From the NCBI RefSeq assembly GCF_988243305.1, contig NZ_OZ547136.1: DNA of 64,000 bases. One strand, 5' to 3'. The translations under genes were made by a program, and so were the position numbers. The notes beneath the pieces were generated by a model. That model saw nothing but the letters and a program-made list of their open reading frames with translations. It was not told where the DNA came from and ran no database searches. Positions within the stretch are counted from its first letter, which is position 1; every line of letters starts with the position of its first letter. This document shows, piece after piece, positions 49,674 through 61,800 of this stretch.

Positions 49674-52600
49674 ATGATTTCTGGCGCACCATCTCAGGAT
49701 TCGCTGTTACCGGACAACCGCCACGCGGCTGATTACCAACAATTACGCGAGCGGCTCATACAGGAACTGAATTTAACGCCGCAGCAGTTACATGAAGAGA
49801 GCAACCTGATCCAGGCCGGCCTGGATTCCATAAGATTGATGAGATGGTTACACTGGTTTCGTAAAAATGGCTACCGCCTTACCCTTCGCGAGCTGTATGC
49901 CGCCCCCACGCTGGCGGCATGGAACCAGTTAATGCTCAGCCGGTCGCCGGAGAACGCGGAAGAAGAAACGCCGCCCGACGAATCATCCTGGCCGAACATG
50001 ACCGAAAGTACCCCCTTCCCATTGACGCCAGTACAGCACGCCTACCTGACGGGCCGCATGCCGGGGCAGACGCTTGGCGGCGTGGGTTGCCACCTGTATC
50101 AGGAGTTTGAAGGCCATTGTCTGACGGCGTCGCAGCTGGAGCAGGCCATCACGACCTTGCTGCAACGCCACCCAATGCTGCATATCGCCTTTCGCCCCGA
50201 CGGGCAGCAGGTCTGGCTACCGCAACCTTACTGGAACGGCGTCACCGTCCATGATTTACGCCATAACGACGCTGAAAGCCGCCAGGCCTATCTGGACGCA
50301 CTGCGCCAGCGCCTGAGCCACCGTCTTTTACGCGTGGAAATCGGCGAAACGTTTGATTTTCAGCTGACGCTCTTGCCGGACAATCGCCACCGCCTCCATG
50401 TCAATATTGACCTGCTGATTATGGATGCCTCCAGCTTTACGCTTTTCTTCGATGAGCTTAACGCCCTGCTGGCCGGAGAATCGCTGCCGGCTATCGACAC
50501 CCGCTATGATTTCCGCTCGTATTTGCTGCACCAGCAGAAGATCAATCAACCACTGAGAGACGACGCGCGCGCTTACTGGCTGGCGAAAGCATCGACGCTT
50601 CCCCCCGCGCCCGTCTTGCCGCTGGCCTGCGAACCCGCCACGCTATGTGAAGTCCGTAATACCCGACGCCGCATGATTGTCCCGGCAACACGCTGGCACG
50701 CCTTTAGCAACCGGGCCGGCGAGTATGGCGTGACGCCGACAATGGCACTGGCGACCTGTTTTTCTGCCGTGCTGGCTCGCTGGGGCGGCCTGACGCGTCT
50801 GCTGCTTAACATCACCTTATTCGACCGCCAGCCGCTGCACCCGGCGGTTGGCGCGATGCTTGCCGACTTCACCAATATTCTTCTGCTGGATACCGCCTGC
50901 GATGGCGATACCGTCAGCAACCTGGCGCGTAAAAACCAGCTCACGTTTACGGAGGACTGGGAGCATCGCCACTGGTCCGGCGTCGAATTACTCCGTGAAC
51001 TCAAACGCCAGCAGCGCTACCCCCACGGCGCCCCGGTGGTATTTACCAGCAATCTGGGGCGTTCCCTCTACAGCAGCCGCGCAGAATCGCCGTTGGGCGA
51101 GCCGGAATGGGGCATCTCGCAAACGCCGCAGGTCTGGATAGATCATCTGGCGTTCGAGCATCACGGCGAGGTCTGGCTACAATGGGACAGCAACGACGCG
51201 CTGTTCCCTCCGGCGTTAGTCGAAACATTGTTCGACGCCTACTGCCAGTTGATTAACCAACTCTGCGATGACGAAAGCGCCTGGCAAAAGCCGTTCGCAG
51301 ATATGATGCCCGCCAGCCAGCGCGCGATACGCGAACGGGTCAACGCCACCGGCGCCCCCATTCCCGAAGGCTTGCTGCATGAAGGCATTTTCCGTATCGC
51401 TCTGCAACAGCCGCAGGCGCTGGCGGTAACGGACATGCGTTATCAGTGGAATTATCATGAGCTGACAGACTATGCCCGCCGTTGCGCGGGCAGGTTAATC
51501 GAGTGCGGGGTTCAGCCCGGCGATAATGTGGCTATCACGATGTCGAAAGGCGCAGGACAACTTGTTGCGGTTCTGGCCGTCCTGCTGGCCGGGGCGGTTT
51601 ACGTTCCGGTTTCGCTGGATCAGCCTGCCGCACGGCGCGAGAAAATCTACGCTGACGCCAGCGTCCGGCTGGTGCTCATTTGTCAGCACGACGCCAGCGC
51701 CGGGTCAGACGATATTCCCGTCCTTGCCTGGCAGCAGGCCATTGAGGCGGAGCCGATCGCCAACCCGGTAGTACGCGCCCCCACGCAACCGGCCTACATT
51801 ATCTACACCTCCGGCTCTACCGGTACGCCGAAAGGGGTAGTCATTTCTCACCGGGGAGCGCTTAACACCTGTTGCGATATCAATACCCGCTATCAGGTTG
51901 GCCCGCATGACAGGGTGCTGGCCCTCTCCGCCCTACATTTTGATTTATCGGTTTACGACATTTTTGGCGTACTGCGCGCGGGCGGCGCGCTGGTGATGGT
52001 GATGGAAAATCAACGGCGCGATCCTCACGCATGGTGTGAGCTGATCCAGCGCCATCAGGTCACGCTCTGGAACAGCGTCCCGGCGCTGTTCGATATGCTG
52101 CTGACCTGGTGTGAAGGTTTCGCCGACGCCACGCCGGAAAACCTGCGCGCAGTGATGCTTTCCGGCGACTGGATCGGGCTTGACCTCCCCGCCCGTTATC
52201 GGGCCTTCCGGCCACAAGGACAATTTATCGCGATGGGCGGTGCCACCGAGGCGTCTATCTGGTCTAACGCCTGCGAAATTCACGACGTCCCCGCCCACTG
52301 GCGCTCCATCCCTTACGGTTTTCCGCTAACCAACCAACGCTACCGGGTGGTGGATGAACAGGGCCGGGACTGCCCTGACTGGGTGCCGGGTGAATTATGG
52401 ATTGGCGGCATTGGGGTCGCGGAAGGCTATTTCAACGATCCCCTGCGTAGCGAGCAGCAATTTTTGACGCTCCCGGACGAGCGCTGGTATCGCACCGGCG
52501 ATCTCGGCTGCTACTGGCCAGATGGCACAATCGAGTTCCTCGGTCGTCGCGACAAGCAGGTCAAAGTCGGAGGATATCGCATCGAGCTGGGCGAAATCGA

Positions 52601-55600
52601 AAGCGCGCTCAGCCAGCTGGCGGGGGTGAAACAAGCAACCGTTCTGGCGATCGGCGAAAAAGAAAAAACGCTGGCGGCATACGTTGTTCCTCAGGGCGAG
52701 GCTTTTTGCGTTACCGATCATCGGAACCCGGCACTGCCGCAGGCGTGGCACACGCTTGCGGGAACGTTGCCCTGTTGCGCCATCTCGCCAGAGATCTCCG
52801 CAGAACAGGTAGCCGATTTCCTTCAGCATCGCCTGCTAAAACTGAAGCCGGGTCACACCGCTGGCGCCGATCCTCTCCCCCTGATGAACTCACTCGCTAT
52901 CCAGCCGCGCTGGCAGGCCGTGGTGGAACGCTGGTTAGCATTTCTGGTGACACAACGGCGACTGAAGCCCGCTGCTGAAGGTTATCAGGTCTGCGCTGGT
53001 GAAGAACGCGAGGATGAGCACCCGCACTTCAGCGGACATGATTTAACGTTATCGCAAATTCTTCGCGGTGCCCGTAACGAACTGTCGTTACTGAACGACG
53101 CGCAGTGGTCGCCGGAAAGCCTGGCCTTTAACCATCCGGCCAGCGCCCCGTATATTCAGGAACTGGCGACAATTTGCCAACAGCTTGCACAGCGCTTACA
53201 GCGCCCGGTGCGCCTGCTTGAGGTGGGAACCCGCACTGGCCGCGCCGCAGAATCGCTGTTAGCACAGCTCAACGCCGGACAGATTGAGTATGTCGGGCTT
53301 GAGCAGAGCCAGGAGATGCTGCTGAGCGCCCGGCAGAGGCTCGCCCCCTGGCCTGGCGCCCGTCTGTCCCTCTGGAATGCAGACACGCTGGCGGCGCACG
53401 CTCACTCGGCGGACATTATCTGGCTTAATAACGCCCTGCATCGTCTGCTGCCGGAAAATCCCGGGCTCCTTGCGACATTACAACAGCTTGCCGTTCCCGG
53501 CGCGCTGCTCTACGTGATGGAGTTTCGCCAGTTAACGCCGTCCGCCCTACTCAGCACGCTCCTGTTAACCAATGGGCAGCCGGAGGCCTTGCTGCATAAC
53601 AGCGCCGACTGGGCGGCATTATTTAGCGCGGCCGCCTTCAACTGTCAGCATGGCGATGAGGTCGCGGGGTTACAACGCTTCCTCGTACAATGTCCTGACA
53701 GGCAGGTGCGCCGCGATCCCCGTCAACTTCAGGCCGCCCTCGCCGGGCGTCTGCCGGGGTGGATGGTGCCGCAACGGATCGTCTTCCTCGACGCCTTACC
53801 GCTGACGGCTAACGGGAAAATTGACTACCAGGCGCTGAAGCGTCGTCATACCCCTGAAGCGGAAAACCCGGCCGAAGCGGATTTACCCCAGGGCGACATT
53901 GAAAAACAGGTTGCCGCCCTCTGGCAGCAACTCTTATCAACTGGCAATGTCACCAGAGAAACCGACTTCTTCCAGCAAGGCGGCGATAGCCTGCTGGCGA
54001 CCCGTCTGACCGGGCAACTTCATCAGGCAGGTTATGAAGCGCAATTAAGCGACCTGTTTAATCATCCCCGGCTGGCGGATTTTGCCGCCACGCTGCGGAA
54101 AACCGACGTCCCGGTCGAACAACCATTCGTCCACTCCCCTGAAGATCGCTACCAGCCCTTTGCGCTTACCGACGTGCAGCAGGCTTACCTGGTGGGGCGT
54201 CAGCCGGGCTTTGCCCTGGGCGGCGTCGGCTCACATTTCTTTGTTGAATTTGAAATTGCCGATCTGGATCTCACCCGGCTGGAGACGGTCTGGAACCGAT
54301 TAATCGCCCGCCACGATATGCTACGCGCCGTCGTGCGTGATGGACAGCAACAGGTGCTCGAACAGACGCCTCGCTGGGTAATACCCGCACACATCCTCCA
54401 TACGCCTGAAGAGGCGTTGCAGGTGCGCGAAAAACTGGCCCATCAGGTACTCAACCCCGAAGTCTGGCCGGTATTCGATCTCCAGGTCGGTTACGTTGAC
54501 GGGATGCCCGCCCGCCTGTGGCTGTGTCTGGATAACCTGTTACTTGACGGGCTGAGCATGCAGATCCTGCTGGCGGAGCTGGAGCACGGCTACCGCTACC
54601 CGCAACAGCTGCTTCCGCCGCTGCCCGTCACCTTCAGGGATTATCTGCAACAACCCTCGCTACAGTCGCCCAATCCAGATTCTCTGGCATGGTGGCAGGC
54701 GCAGCTTGATGATATTCCTCCGGCGCCTGCGTTGCCGCTGCGCTGCTTGCCTCAGGAGGTTGAAACACCGCGCTTCGCCCGCCTGAACGGCGCACTGGAC
54801 AGCACGCGCTGGCATCGGCTGAAAAAACGGGCGGCTGACGCCCATCTCACCCCGTCGGCCGTACTGTTGTCGGTGTGGTCAACGGTTCTCTCTGCATGGA
54901 GTGCACAGCCTGAGTTCACGCTTAACCTTACGCTTTTCGACAGGCGACCGCTGCACCCGCAAATCAACCAGATTCTGGGCGATTTCACCTCGCTGATGCT
55001 GCTGAGCTGGCATCCCGGCGAAAGCTGGCTGCACAGCGCGCAGTCACTACAGCAGCGGCTGAGCCAGAACCTCAACCACCGCGATGTGTCAGCCATCCGC
55101 GTGATGCGTCAACTGGCGCAACGGCAAAACGTGCCTGCCGTTCCGATGCCCGTCGTCTTTACCAGCGCACTGGGCTTTGAGCAGGATAACTTCCTCGCCC
55201 GGCGTAATCTGCTCAAACCGGTCTGGGGCATCTCCCAGACGCCGCAGGTCTGGCTCGATCACCAGATTTATGAATCCGAAGGCGAACTGCGCTTTAACTG
55301 GGATTTTGTCGCCGCGCTGTTTCCTGCCGGGCAGGTGGAGCGCCAGTTTGAACAGTATTGCGCATTGCTAAACCGAATGGCCGAGGATGAAAGCGGCTGG
55401 CAACTGCCGCTCGCCGCGCTGGTGCCTCCCGTTAAACACGCAGGGCAATGCGCAGAGCGCTCACCGCGCGTATGCCCTGAGCACTCTCAGCCACACATTG
55501 CGGCGGACGAGAGCACCGTCAGCCTGATTTGCGACGCCTTCCGCGAGGTGGTTGGCGAGTCTGTCACGCCCGCAGAAAACTTCTTTGAGGCGGGCGCAAC

Positions 55601-55781
55601 GTCGCTGAATCTGGTGCAACTGCACGTTTTGTTACAACGTCACGAATTTTCCACCCTGACGTTGCTTGACCTCTTCACCCACCCTTCTCCTGCTGCCCTG
55701 GCCGATTATCTGGCCGGCGTCGCCACGGTGGAGAAAACAAAACGACCTCGCCCTGTTCGCCGTCGTCAGCGGCGGATATAG
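49674..55781 (+). CDS. irp2: Yersiniabactin NRPS HMWP2
   Basis: 2035 aa from [28 protein letters not shown]...; carrier, cyclization/condensation and adenylation domains (e.g. [18 protein letters not shown]). Confidence 0.93.
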
Positions 55782-55868
55782 CGCGAAGCAAACTGATTTT
55801 CCCCGGAACGCCATCGCGAACGCATGGCGTTCCATTGACTTTGTGAATCTTAGGAAACGGGACCGATT

Positions 55869-58800
55869 ATGGATAACTTGCGCTTCTCTTCTGCGCCGAC
55901 AGCAGATTCCATTGATGCATCGATCGTTCAACACTACCCGGACTGCGAACCTGTCGCGGTTATCGGCTACGCCTGCCATTTTCCTGAGTCGCCGGATGGC
56001 GAAACGTTCTGGCAAAATCTGCTGGAAGGTCGTGAATGCAGCCGACGCTTTACGCGCGAAGAGCTTCTGGCCGTCGGTCTGGATGCCGCCATCATTGACG
56101 ATCCTCATTATGTCAATATCGGTACGGTGTTAGACAACGCCGACTGCTTCGACGCCACCCTGTTTGGCTATTCGCGACAGGAAGCGGAGTCGATGGACCC
56201 GCAGCAGCGCCTGTTTTTGCAGGCGGTCTGGCATGCGCTGGAACATGCCGGTTATGCCCCCGGCGCCGTCCCCCATAAGACCGGCGTTTTCGCCTCTTCC
56301 CGGATGAGTACCTACCCCGGTCGCGAAGCATTGAACGTGACAGAAGTCGCGCAGGTAAAAGGTCTGCAATCTCTGATGGGCAATGATAAAGACTATATTG
56401 CCACCCGCGCCGCGTACAAACTCAACCTGCACGGCCCGGCGTTATCGGTACAGACCGCCTGCTCCAGCTCGCTGGTTGCCGTGCATCTGGCCTGTGAAAG
56501 CCTGCGCGCAGGCGAATCCGATATGGCGGTTGCCGGCGGCGTGGCGCTCTCTTTCCCCCAGCAGGCAGGCTACCGCTACCAGCCCGGAATGATTTTCTCT
56601 CCTGATGGTCACTGTCGTCCCTTTGACGCCTCGGCTGAGGGCACCTGGGCCGGTAACGGTCTCGGCTGCGTGGTGCTGCGTCGCCTGAGAGACGCGCTGC
56701 TGTCAGGCGATCCGATTATCTCGGTGATCCTCTCCAGCGCGGTCAACAACGACGGCAACAGAAAGGTCGGCTATACCGCCCCTTCCGTCGCAGGGCAACA
56801 GGCAGTCATCGAAGAGGCGTTAATGCTGGCGGCCATCGACGACAGGCAGGTAGGTTACATTGAAACCCACGGCACCGGCACACCGCTGGGCGACGCGATT
56901 GAAATTGAAGCGTTACGCAACGTCTATGCGCCTCGCCCGCAGGATCAGCGCTGTGCGCTCGGTTCCGTGAAAAGTAACATGGGCCATCTGGATACCGCGG
57001 CGGGCATTGCCGGACTGCTGAAAACCGTTCTGGCAGTCAGTCGCGGGCAAATTCCTCCCTTACTGAATTTTCACACCCCCAACCCGGCGCTGAAACTTGA
57101 AGAGAGCCCCTTTACCATACCGGTGTCGGCACAGGCATGGCAGGACGAAATGCGCTATGCGGGCGTCTCCTCCTTTGGTATTGGCGGCACCAACTGCCAT
57201 ATGATCGTCGCCTCGCTGCCCGACGCGCTCAACGCGCGCCTCCCCAATACGGATAGCGGCAGAAAAAGTACCGCGCTGCTGCTCAGCGCCGCCAGCGACA
57301 GCGCGTTGCGGCGGCTGGCGACGGATTATGCCGGGGCGCTGAGAGAGAATGCGGATGCCAGCTCTCTGGCCTTCACAGCCCTGCACGCGCGCCGTCTCGA
57401 TCTCCCCTTCCGCCTGGCGGCGCCATTAAACCGTGAAACCGCCGAGGCGCTCAGCGCCTGGGCCGGTGAGAAATCGGGGGCGCTGGTTTACAGCGGCCAC
57501 GGCGCCAGCGGCAAGCAGGTGTGGCTGTTTACCGGCCAGGGCTCGCACTGGCGCACTATGGGTCAAACGATGTACCATCACTCAACGGCGTTTGCCGACA
57601 CGCTGGATCGCTGTTTTTCCGCCTGTAGCGAAATGCTCACGCCGTCACTGCGCGAAGCGATGTTTAATCCCGATTCGGCGCAGCTGGACAATATGGCCTG
57701 GGCGCAGCCGGCGATTGTCGCGTTTGAAATCGCGATGGCGGCGCACTGGCGTGCTGAAGGACTGAAGCCAGACTTCGCCATTGGGCATTCCGTCGGTGAA
57801 TTTGCCGCTGCCGTTGTCTGCGGACACTATACGATTGAACAGGTCATGCCACTGGTTTGTCGGCGCGGCGCGCTAATGCAGCAGTGCGCAAGCGGCGCGA
57901 TGGTGGCGGTATTTGCAGACGAAGACACGCTGATGCCGCTGGCTCGCCAGTTTGAGCTGGATCTCGCCGCCAACAACGGTACGCAACATACGGTATTTTC
58001 CGGGCCGGAAGCCCGTCTCGCGGTATTTTGCGCCACGCTCTCGCAGCATGACATTAACTATCGTCGCCTGAGCGTAACCGGTGCGGCGCACTCCGCTTTA
58101 CTGGAGCCGATACTCGATCGGTTCCTGGACACCTGCGCGGGACTGCACGCGGAGCCGGGGCAAATACCGATTATTTCCACGCTCACCGCCGACGTCATTG
58201 ATGAGTCAACGCTCAACCAGGCGGATTACTGGCGCCGACACATGCGCCAGCCGGTGCGTTTTATCCAGAGTATTCAGGTGGCGCATCAGCTCGGCGCCCG
58301 CGTTTTTCTGGAGATGGGGCCCGATGCCCAGTTGGTTGCTTGCGGGCAGCGCGAATACCGCGATAACGCATACTGGATAGCCAGCGCCCGGCGTAACAAA
58401 GAGGCGAGCGATGTCCTCAATCAGGCCCTGCTCCAGCTTTACGCTGCCGGCGTCGCCCTACCGTGGGCCGACCTGCTGGCGGGCGATGGACAACGTATCG
58501 CTGCGCCATGTTATCCGTTTGATACTGAACGTTACTGGAAAGAGCGCGTCTCCCCGGCCTGCGAGCCTGCCGACGCAGCGCTGTCTGCCGGGCTGGAGGT
58601 GGCGAGTCGCGCCGCGACAGCGCTCGATCTCCCTCGCCTGGAAGCGCTTAAACAGTGCGCCACGCGACTGCACGCCATCTACGTCGATCAACTGGTACAA
58701 CGCTGTACCGGCGATGCCATTGAGAACGGCGTGGACGCCATGACCATCATGCGCCGTGGACGTCTGCTGCCCCGCTACCAGCAGCTACTCCAGCGCCTGC

Positions 58801-61800
58801 TGAATAACTGCGTGGTCGACGGCGATTACCGCTGCACCGACGGGCGATACGTCCGCGCCCGCCCCATTGAACATCAACAGCGGGAATCACTGCTGACGGA
58901 ACTTGCCGGTTATTGTGAAGGTTTTCAGGCTATTCCCGACACCATCGCCCGTGCCGGCGATCGGTTATATGAAATGATGAGCGGCGCGGAAGAACCGGTG
59001 GCGATTATCTTCCCGCAAAGCGCCTCCGACGGCGTGGAAGTGCTGTATCAGGAATTCAGCTTTGGCCGCTATTTCAACCAAATCGCCGCCGGGGTATTAC
59101 GCGGCATTGTCCAGACGCGTCAGCCCCGCCAGCCGTTGCGTATTCTTGAAGTTGGCGGCGGAACCGGCGGCACCACCGCGTGGCTGCTGCCGGAACTCAA
59201 CGGCGTTCCGGCACTGGAGTACCATTTCACCGATATCTCGGCGCTGTTCACCCGTCGCGCCCAGCAGAAATTCGCCGACTACGATTTTGTGAAGTATAGC
59301 GAGCTGGATCTCGAAAAAGAGGCGCAGTCTCAGGGTTTCCAGGCACAGTCTTACGATCTTATCGTGGCAGCGAACGTGATTCACGCCACCCGCCATATTG
59401 GCCGCACGCTCGATAATCTGCGCCCCCTGCTCAAGCCGGGCGGGCGCCTGCTGATGCGCGAAATCACCCAGCCAATGCGTCTGTTTGACTTCGTTTTCGG
59501 CCCGCTGGTTCTTCCGCTACAGGATCTCGACGCCCGCGAAGGTGAGTTATTCCTCACCACCGCTCAGTGGCAACAACAGTGCCGCCACGCCGGATTCAGC
59601 AAAGTGGCGTGGCTACCGCAGGATGGCAGCCCGAACGCCGGGATGAGCGAACATATCATTCTCGCCACGCTGCCCGGTCAGGCGGTTAGCGCCGTAACAT
59701 TCACCGCGCCATCAGAACCCGTGTTGGGGCAGGCGCTGACGGATAACGGTGATTATCTCGCCGACTGGTCTGATTGCGCAGGTCAGCCCGAACAGTTTAA
59801 CGCCCGCTGGCAGGAGGCATGGCGTCTGCTTTCACAGCGTCATGGCGACGCTCTGCCTGTGGAACCGCCCCCCGTCGCCGCCCCGGAGTGGCTGGGGAAG
59901 GTTCGCTTAAGCTGGCAAAACGAAGCCTTTTCCCGCGGTCAGATGCGCGTTGAAGCCCGTCATCCTGCTGGCGAGTGGCTGCCGCTATCGCCCGCCGCGC
60001 CTCTTCCTGCGCCGCAAACGCATTATCAATGGCGCTGGACGCCCCTCAACGTCGCCAGCATTGACCATCCGCTTACCTTTAGCTTCAGCGCCGGTACGCT
60101 TGCGCGCAGCGACGAGCTGGCGCAATACGGCATCATTCACGATCCGCACGCCTCTTCACGACTGATGATTGTTGAGGAGAGCGAGGATACGCTGGCCTTA
60201 GCGGAGAAAGTGATAGCAGCGCTCACCGCCAGCGCAGCCGGATTGATTGTGGTTACTCGCCGCGCGTGGCGAGTCGAGGAAAATGAAGCACTCTCTGCAT
60301 CCCATCACGCGCTATGGGCCTTGCTTCGCGTCGCGGCCAACGAACAGCCGGAACGGTTGCTTGCCGCCATCGATCTCGCCGAAAACACCCCGTGGGAAAC
60401 GCTGCATCAAGGGTTGAGCGCAGTCTCACTATCACAGCGCTGGCTCGCCGCACGGAGTGACACCCTTTGGCTTCCTTCACTGTCGCCCAATACGGGATGC
60501 GCCGCTGAATTACCGGCAAACGTGTTTACCGGCGATAGCCGCTGGCATCTGGTGACCGGAGCGTTTGGCGGATTAGGCCGCCTTGCCGTGAACTGGCTCA
60601 GAGAAAAAGGGGCGCGACGCATCGCCCTGCTGGCGCCGCGCGTGGATGAGTCATGGCTACGCGACGTGGAGGGCGGGCAGACGCGCGTCTGCCGTTGTGA
60701 TGTGGGCGATGCCGGGCAACTGGCCACGGTTCTTGACGATCTGGCGGCCAACGGCGGCATTGCCGGAGCGATTCATGCCGCTGGCGTATTGGCTGACGCG
60801 CCCTTGCAGGAGCTTGATGACCACCAGCTGGCTGCCGTTTTCGCGGTAAAAGCGCAGGCGGCAAGCCAGCTGTTGCAAACCCTGCGCAACCACGACGGAC
60901 GCTATCTTATTCTCTACTCTTCCGCTGCCGCCACCCTCGGCGCGCCGGGTCAGAGCGCCCATGCGCTGGCCTGCGGCTACCTGGACGGGCTGGCCCAGCA
61001 GTTTTCCACCCTTGATGCGCCGAAAACGCTCTCTGTCGCCTGGGGCGCATGGGGAGAAAGCGGTCGGGCGGCCACGCCGGAAATGCTGGCGACGCTCGCC
61101 AGCCGAGGTATGGGCGCGTTAAGCGATGCCGAAGGCTGCTGGCACCTGGAACAGGCGGTGATGCGCGGCGCCCCGTGGCGACTGGCGATGCGCGTTTTTA
61201 CCGACAAAATGCCCCCGTTACAACAGGCTCTGTTTAACATCAGCGCCACAGAAAAAGCCGCAACGCCGGTCATTCCTCCTGCTGATGACAACGCCTTTAA
61301 CGGCAGCCTGAGCGATGAAACAGCGGTGATGGCATGGCTGAAAAAGCGGATTGCGGTTCAGCTAAGGCTGAGCGATCCGGCGTCACTGCATCCAAACCAG
61401 GATCTGTTGCAACTCGGCATGGACTCGCTGCTCTTCCTTGAACTCAGTAGCGATATTCAGCACTACCTGGGTGTACGCATCAATGCGGAACGGGCGTGGC
61501 AGGATCTGTCTCCTCATGGACTCACGCAGCTTATCTGTTCTAAGCCAGAGGCGACGCCTGCCGCTTCGCAGCCGGAAGTGTTGCGGCACGACGCCGACGA
61601 GCGTTATGCGCCCTTCCCTTTGACGCCCATTCAGCACGCCTACTGGCTGGGGCGAACCCACCTCATTGGCTATGGCGGCGTCGCCTGTCACGTCCTGTTT
61701 GAGTGGGATAAACGCCACGATGAGTTCGATCTCGCCATACTGGAGAAAGCATGGAACCAGCTCATCGCACGCCACGATATGTTGCGTATGGTGGTTGATG

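Follow-up and report, generated by a model that had tools for sequence, protein, structure and literature searches.

Intercistronic stem-loops that act as stabilisers of part of a message are known from the malE-malF junction (REP hairpins), from the Rhodobacter puf operon and from papB-papA. The hairpin described here, in the spacer between irp2 and irp1, is like these in being a stable GC-rich stem-loop in an untranslated operon gap without efficient termination, and by analogy with them it may be placed to stall 3'-to-5' exonucleases and to set unequal abundances of the upstream and downstream segments. Unlike the malE-malF REP hairpins, it is single-copy and not a REP/BIME member, and unlike the stabiliser systems in general it separates two genes whose products share one assembly line, where a need for unequal expression is not obvious. 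A second related class is that of the Rho-independent terminators and intra-operon attenuators, with rplL-rpoB as an example. Here too there is a GC-rich hairpin with a U-containing tail inside an operon, but the U-tract is weak and interrupted, the genes downstream lack promoters of their own, and the terminator-like score does not exceed that of shuffles. The third is the ompA 5' UTR type, which our hairpin resembles in position: in each of the eight lineages that we compare, the start codon follows it at 15-35 nt; after an upstream cut it could, by the same analogy, serve as a protective 5' structure for irp1 mRNA. The difference from ompA is that such a role would require an endonucleolytic cut just 5' of the stem. 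Full-text literature searches find no description of the hairpin, a mention in the original irp2/irp1 sequencing papers being possible, and no transcript-end mapping, half-life or mutational data across it.

The window (the whole stretch of DNA analysed, 64,000 nucleotides) carries an E. coli high-pathogenicity island (HPI). A segment of 251 nt around the hairpin has 100% identity to many E. coli chromosomes in which RefSeq annotates irp2 (HMWP2) and irp1 (HMWP1), with the same gene ends and the same gap of 87 nt in the identical E. coli locus. The features of the locus, and the spacing at the other HPI junctions, are the following.

49674..55781, + strand: irp2 (HMWP2) coding sequence, the upstream cistron (open reading frame 49656..55781; the 6108-nt irp2 of RefSeq, ending 87 nt before irp1, puts the annotated ATG at 49674)
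55779-55781, + strand: irp2 stop codon TAG, read from the sequence
55782..55868, + strand: irp2-irp1 intercistronic spacer, 87 nt, from the sequence and the RefSeq annotation
55805..55814, + strand: 5' arm of the hairpin, GGAACGCCAT, from the sequence and predicted folds
55815..55823, + strand: loop of the hairpin, CGCGAACGC, from predicted folds
55824..55833, + strand: 3' arm of the hairpin, ATGGCGTTCC, from the sequence and predicted folds
55834..55868, + strand: 3' part of the spacer, with the interrupted U-rich tail AUUGACUUUGUG and then the irp1 translation initiation region
55852-55855 and 55859-55862, + strand: the SD-like AGGA and GGGA, respectively, of the irp1 translation initiation region
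55869..64000, + strand: irp1 (HMWP1) coding sequence, the downstream cistron, truncated by the window end (translation MDNLRFSSAP...; RefSeq annotation)
55869-55871, + strand: irp1 start codon ATG, read from the sequence
Junctions irp1/ybtU and ybtU/ybtT: overlap of 4 nt; junction ybtT/ybtE: 3 nt between the genes
Junctions ybtP/ybtQ and ybtQ/ybtX: overlap; junction ybtX/ybtS: 27 nt between the genes

Within the HPI operons, RefSeq annotation shows no sizeable gap apart from the irp2-irp1 spacer, all other junctions overlapping or leaving at most 27 nt; therefore the hairpin marks the sole HPI junction with uncoupled translation and naked mRNA. A Y. pestis RNA-seq table reports a joint response of irp2 and irp1, whose cotranscription we take to be established, and irp2 mutants are reportedly polar. 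The two genes are in the same frame, 29 codons apart, with in-frame stops at 55779 (TAG), 55794 (TGA), 55836 (TGA) and 55851 (TAG). Within irp1, window position 55927 is a T (Val20 of HMWP1), where three of the four E. coli HPIs sampled have a C (Ala).

The arms GGAACGCCAT and ATGGCGTTCC are perfect reverse complements around CGCGAACGC and form a perfect 10-bp stem with 6 G-C pairs. The earlier note had placed such a stem at 55805-55833 in the 87-nt spacer, and these coordinates are exact by the sequence, by folding and by RefSeq. In predicted folds two more pairs can form inside the loop, G55816-C55823 and C55817-G55822, leaving a GAAC tetraloop and a bulged C55815; these inner two pairs are invariant across 6 HPI variants. 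The 29-mer hairpin folds at -18.7 kcal/mol. With flanks of 4 nt (37 nt in all) it reaches -20.2 kcal/mol with z = -4.94, none of 200 shuffles is as good, and the hairpin takes up 82% of the ensemble, so the stability that the note expected of it is borne out by folding. Over all 87 nt of the spacer the fold stands out less (z = -1.8). An inverted repeat of this kind appears in only 12 of 20,000 shuffles of the spacer itself. Over the whole window, where we count perfectly paired inverted repeats with stems of at least 10 bp and loops of 3-12 nt, there are 11 distinct cases, where 100 dinucleotide shuffles give 0.57 +/- 0.78; all but one of the 11 fall outside open reading frames of at least 180 aa. 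From the fold energy, the excess of repeats in the window and the spacer shuffles together, it follows that the irp2-irp1 hairpin is not a chance feature. The one window repeat within an open reading frame of at least 180 aa is CAGACGCTGG-N10-CCAGCGTCTG at 45951-45980, inside ybtQ, which is on the minus strand.

Two other foldings of the spacer came up in this analysis. The hexamer GAACGC is directly repeated at 55806-11 and 55818-23, and this repetition allows an alternative 6-bp hairpin with a 3-nt loop at 55818-55832, which is much weaker than the 10-bp stem. The minimum free energy structure of the 87-nt spacer also proposes a lower stem (55782-91 with 55835-45), which we reject; every substitution in the other lineages breaks it.

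Set against the general form of an intrinsic terminator, the stem has the expected shape (GC-rich and about 5-14 bp long, with a short loop), with its 10 bp and its 9-nt loop closing to a tetraloop. There is no uninterrupted U-tract directly 3' of the stem. The tail AUUGACUUUGUG has 6 U in 12 nt and 4 U in its first 8 nt, so the absence of a U-run that the earlier note remarked on holds in the strict sense, but the tail is still U-rich, if interrupted. Under a lenient terminator rule (5 T in 8) the only hit is the shorter hairpin 55818-55832 with its tail, a count of 1 compared to 1.2 +/- 1.3 in shuffles. Nor is the hairpin located where a transcription unit ends: irp2 precedes it, irp1 follows, and the downstream genes overlap one another. 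A promoter scan of 55300-56300 on both strands finds no sigma-70-like promoter, and we dismiss the TTGACT at 55835-55840 as a promoter element for want of a -10 partner. The Rfam 15 covariance models, scanned over 55000-56600, give no match over 55782-55868 even at E-values up to 10. Membership in a dispersed repeat family (REP/BIME) is not supported either, as E. coli genomes carry a 47-nt query at a median of 1 place each, and only those that are HPI-positive have it. Matches to an arm with at most one mismatch number 11 in the window, both arms included, versus 5.5 +/- 2.4 expected, an over-representation that is marginal at most. Two kinds of coding reading are rejected. The mini-ORF ATG GCG TTC CAT TGA in the 3' arm has no SD, and its ATG is lost in K. 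oxytoca; the long open reading frames that cross the junction, 55666..56133 on the + strand and 55632..56108 on the - strand, are spurious, both frames being broken by a 1-nt spacer indel in K. michiganensis.

For variation among HPIs, we compare five lineages: the main E. coli/Klebsiella pneumoniae type, a 95.6%-identical E. coli type, and those of Salmonella, K. michiganensis and K. oxytoca. A genome scan provides S. diarizonae, K. michiganensis and K. oxytoca as the only extra lineages, and a metagenome scan anchored on the 5' part of the spacer, which avoids a bias towards the hairpin, returns only both Klebsiella types. Within E. coli, a 47-nt segment is identical in 2202 of 2265 HPI copies (97%), which reflects recent spread rather than constraint. 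Across lineages, a stem-loop is present at this spot in five out of five. The 95.6%-identical E. coli type has the same hairpin as the main type. The Salmonella HPI has GG changed to AA at the base of the stem, uncompensated, which leaves 7-8 bp and about -13 kcal/mol, and the K. michiganensis hairpin consists of a 6-bp core and two outer pairs at -12 kcal/mol; in these two lineages the outer 2-4 stem pairs are lost without compensation, and both hairpins are compatible with neutral decay (P = 0.16-0.40). The K. oxytoca HPI has 9 changes in 37 nt and still folds at -22.0 kcal/mol, with one A-U pair replaced by G-C as a compensatory change, an extended helix and a GCAA loop. When the substitutions are placed at random, such stability has P = 0.001 under a uniform null, and P = 0.036 when the types of substitution are preserved. 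A formal pair count over the HPI lineages gives 88.7% of cells paired and one compensatory pair, which 93 of 500 shuffles equal; this covariation is not significant.

The hairpin diverges by 14% from that of K. michiganensis and by 24% from that of K. oxytoca, and third codon positions by 24-30%; by these figures its sequence is conserved no better than at a near-neutral rate. The conservation across HPIs by which the earlier note proposed to judge the hairpin is therefore present for the stem-loop as such, but not for its sequence, nor for the outer pairs in Salmonella and K. michiganensis. For the downstream part of the spacer (55834-55868, TTGACTTTGTGAATCTTAGGAAACGGGACCGATT) the divergence in the HPIs of K. 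michiganensis and K. oxytoca is 6-9%, versus the 24-30% of third codon positions, and this stretch therefore is under stronger sequence constraint than the hairpin. Presumably this part is the irp1 translation initiation region, or else another binding site.

One natural variant in E. coli TUM14664 (L120) changes the hairpin at two positions: a loop C-to-A at the equivalent of 55817, which removes an inner pair, and a stem C-to-U at the equivalent of 55828, which turns G55810-C55828 into a G-U wobble. It folds at -17.2 kcal/mol on the + strand and at -14.2 on the - strand. Taken over all lineages, the strand evidence from G-U wobbles is mixed: TUM14664, K. oxytoca and Photobacterium damselae favour the + strand, and Salmonella and K. 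michiganensis fold better on the - strand. As the lineages contradict each other, we discard the assignment of a strand by this route.

The hairpin of the HPI ends 35 nt before the irp1 ATG. When its 5' arm is removed or disrupted in silico, the predicted opening energy of the irp1 initiation region becomes about 1.7 kcal/mol higher, and compensatory changes in both arms bring it back; the predicted effect of the hairpin on this region is small. That change is what speaks for a modulator of irp1 translation, one of the roles put forward by the earlier note, but the pairing by which an SD would be sequestered is not kept in other lineages. As to which SD irp1 uses, the equivalent of AGGA at 55852-55855 is AGAA in the K. 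oxytoca-type metagenome contigs L106, L111, L113 and L116, and because of this the GGGA/GAGA at 55859-55862 is more likely to be the functional one.

Outside the HPI, homologues of irp1 at 65-71% identity (in Morganella, Azoarcus and three metagenomic contigs) overlap the irp2-like gene by 1-4 nt. Short gaps without a hairpin are present in a Klebsiella cluster (61% identity), where the gap is 12 nt, and in a Winslowiella cluster (53%), where it is 20 nt. In Xanthomonas and Ralstonia an MFS gene intervenes, and in Pseudomonas the upstream gene is a different one. As the relatives that overlap or are closely spaced have no hairpin, spacer and hairpin go together. Among the relatives examined, a comparable spacer is present only in piscibactin-type clusters, whose irp1 is 60-63% identical and to which plasmid searches add one Vibrio locus. 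The spacers that carry hairpins in these clusters are the following.

L088 1445-1500, L125 240-295 and L091 1440-1500: piscibactin-type irp2-irp1 spacer hairpins, 15-25 nt upstream of the start codon

The P. damselae junction has a 56-nt spacer with 14 pairs (z = -3.8), that of Vibrio sp. THAF64 a 56-nt spacer with a perfect 14-bp stem (z = -6.1), and that of V. mimicus a 61-nt spacer with a weak hairpin of 6 bp (z = -0.8). Between P. damselae and THAF64, which have 77% nucleotide identity, two pairs are changed on both sides, one wobble becomes a Watson-Crick pair, none is broken, and the loop is completely changed. After the stem comes AUUU in P. damselae, and the THAF64 and V. mimicus tails are not U-rich; a strict U-tract is found in none of the eight lineages (five HPI and three piscibactin-type). 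The piscibactin hairpins are like that of the HPI in their position at the same junction in the same gene order, and in being GC-rich stem-loops without a U-tract just upstream of the SD of an irp1 that starts with MDN or MNN. They are unlike it in their unrelated stem and loop sequences and in the longer 14-bp stem, and they sit closer to the stop codon (8-9 nt) and to the ATG (15 nt). The hairpins of the two families may be homologous or of independent origin, either being compatible with these observations. From the comparison of sequences, the hairpin appears to be kept as a structure, with stems and loops varying freely between lineages.

Our preferred reading, which we hold tentatively and at a little below an even chance, is that of a non-terminating intercistronic hairpin in the sense mRNA, kept for its structure and acting as passive punctuation, decay barrier or insulator. 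The inverted repeat would form a stable stem-loop in the sense-strand irp2-irp1-ybtUTE mRNA, at the place where ribosomes would leave the operon message uncovered, and RNA polymerase would mostly read through it. In the message the hairpin could block 3'-to-5' exonucleases, by which the irp2 segment would be protected; after an upstream cleavage it could form a protective 5' structure of the irp1 segment; and by folding away about one third of the naked spacer it might keep the irp1 ribosome-binding region free of long-range pairing. By analogy with the described systems, an exonuclease barrier or a post-cleavage protective 5' structure would be the most likely mechanism. We infer that the action is at the RNA level and on the + strand, and the consequences for stability, processing and insulation are inferred with it. 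Efficient termination is spoken against by the absence of a strict U-tract in any lineage and by the reliance of the downstream genes on the irp2 promoter, and the lack of loop conservation between families points to a generic structural role and against a sequence-specific binder. With no promoter nearby, no strict U-tract and a joint response of irp2 and irp1, a read-through hairpin in a cotranscribed message is the natural reading. In that form the earlier note is partly supported, with some evolutionary evidence added, and one or another of the roles it proposed (stabiliser, processing site or irp1 translation modulator) may apply.

Several other explanations compete with this reading. The hairpin could be a neutral quasi-palindrome without function, produced by chance or by template-switch correction in replication, its apparent conservation being due to the recent spread of the HPI. 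We regard this as unlikely, although a good part of the variation data is in line with it: the identity of 97% of the E. coli copies, the lack of significant covariation in the HPI, a stem base that decays uncompensated in Salmonella and K. michiganensis, a hairpin that evolves at about a near-neutral rate, and relatives that lack the spacer and manage without the hairpin. Template switching at quasi-palindromes can moreover mimic compensatory change. Against a neutral origin stand the rarity of the repeat in spacer shuffles, the location of 10 of the 11 comparable window hairpins outside open reading frames of at least 180 aa, and the full stability of the K. oxytoca hairpin after 9 changes. 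Three piscibactin-type lineages, moreover, have a hairpin of unrelated sequence at this junction, and two of these lineages differ by compensatory changes without a broken pair. Distinctly unlikely, in our estimate, is a leaky intrinsic terminator or intra-operon attenuator, at which some polymerases would stop in the U-rich tail and irp1-ybtUTE would be lowered relative to irp2. It would explain the GC-rich stem followed by AUUGACUUUGUG, the hit of the lenient scan at 55818-55832 with its tail, a tail more conserved than the stem, and the AUUU after the P. damselae stem; but the U-tract is interrupted, terminator-like structures are no more numerous than in shuffles, and the tails of THAF64 and V. 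mimicus are not U-rich. The overlap of the tail with the conserved irp1 initiation region by itself explains the conservation of the tail, and irp1 and the genes downstream of it, which have no promoter of their own, are needed in step with irp2 for the same product.

A translational switch of irp1 would give the 3' arm (GCGUUCC) two alternative partners, the 5' arm and the SD-like GGAAACG, and a factor that binds the 5' arm would then shut off irp1. As read from the sequence, CGUUCC can pair with GGAAACG around one bulged A, and with the 5' arm complemented in silico the initiation region takes 1.7 kcal/mol more to open. The hairpin far outcompetes this alternative pairing in the predicted ensemble, though, and in K. 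oxytoca, K. michiganensis and the Salmonella plasmid HPI it is abolished by changes in the 3' arm, the SD region being unaltered. With AGGA replaced by AGAA in some K. oxytoca-type copies and the hairpin 35 nt from the ATG, we consider such a switch very improbable, and we reject the anti-SD pairing of the 3' arm with GGAAACG, which is not conserved across lineages. Hardly credible, finally, is an element that acts at the DNA level, as an operator for a dimeric regulator or through a structure of the minus strand (antisense RNA or cruciform). The repeat is a perfect palindrome, the same island has another perfect palindrome upstream of irp2 (49566-49599), and for the variants of Salmonella and K. 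michiganensis the - strand gives the better fold. An operator should keep its half-sites, but here the half-site sequence is unconserved (14-24% divergence) and the pairing is kept; compensatory changes that keep the symmetry are unexpected for a protein operator. The stems of the HPI and piscibactin clusters share no sequence, no promoter-like site is nearby on either strand, and the arm matches the upstream palindrome at only 8 of 11 positions, a likeness that is lost in other lineages.

For Yersinia, extraintestinal E. coli and Klebsiella, yersiniabactin is of major importance in virulence and fitness, and accounts of its regulation deal almost exclusively with the promoter (Fur, YbtA). A hairpin selected for its structure, at the single uncoupled junction of a biosynthetic mRNA of about 22 kb, would point to a post-transcriptional layer. 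This layer would consist of segmental mRNA stability or of insulation of irp1 initiation, and it could affect the HMWP2/HMWP1 balance and the cost of the siderophore; a hairpin under such selection would also be relevant to heterologous expression of the cluster. An inert hairpin would leave this picture unchanged, and in both cases the element is of a well-known class. A further-reaching reading, which we think improbable, makes the hairpin a conserved regulatory RNA element specific to operons of the yersiniabactin/piscibactin type: a determinant of processing or stability, possibly the target of an iron-responsive sRNA or of an RNA-binding protein, that sets the ratio of HMWP2 to HMWP1 (and YbtUTE) independently of the Fur/YbtA promoter. 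If true, it would account for the loss, in these lineages, of the translational coupling that their relatives have.

The window also shows features upstream of irp2. No match to the 19-bp Fur consensus occurs anywhere in the window at up to three mismatches. The ybtA-irp2 intergenic region (49484-49673) has two perfect palindromes. A 14-bp stem at 49515-49547, just after ybtA, is followed by TTCTTTCC and is terminator-like. The other is a 12-bp palindrome at 49566-49599, ACCCGAAACGGG-N10-CCCGTTTCGGGT, upstream of an AT-rich stretch, and we take it to be, probably, the known YbtA operator of the irp2 promoter.
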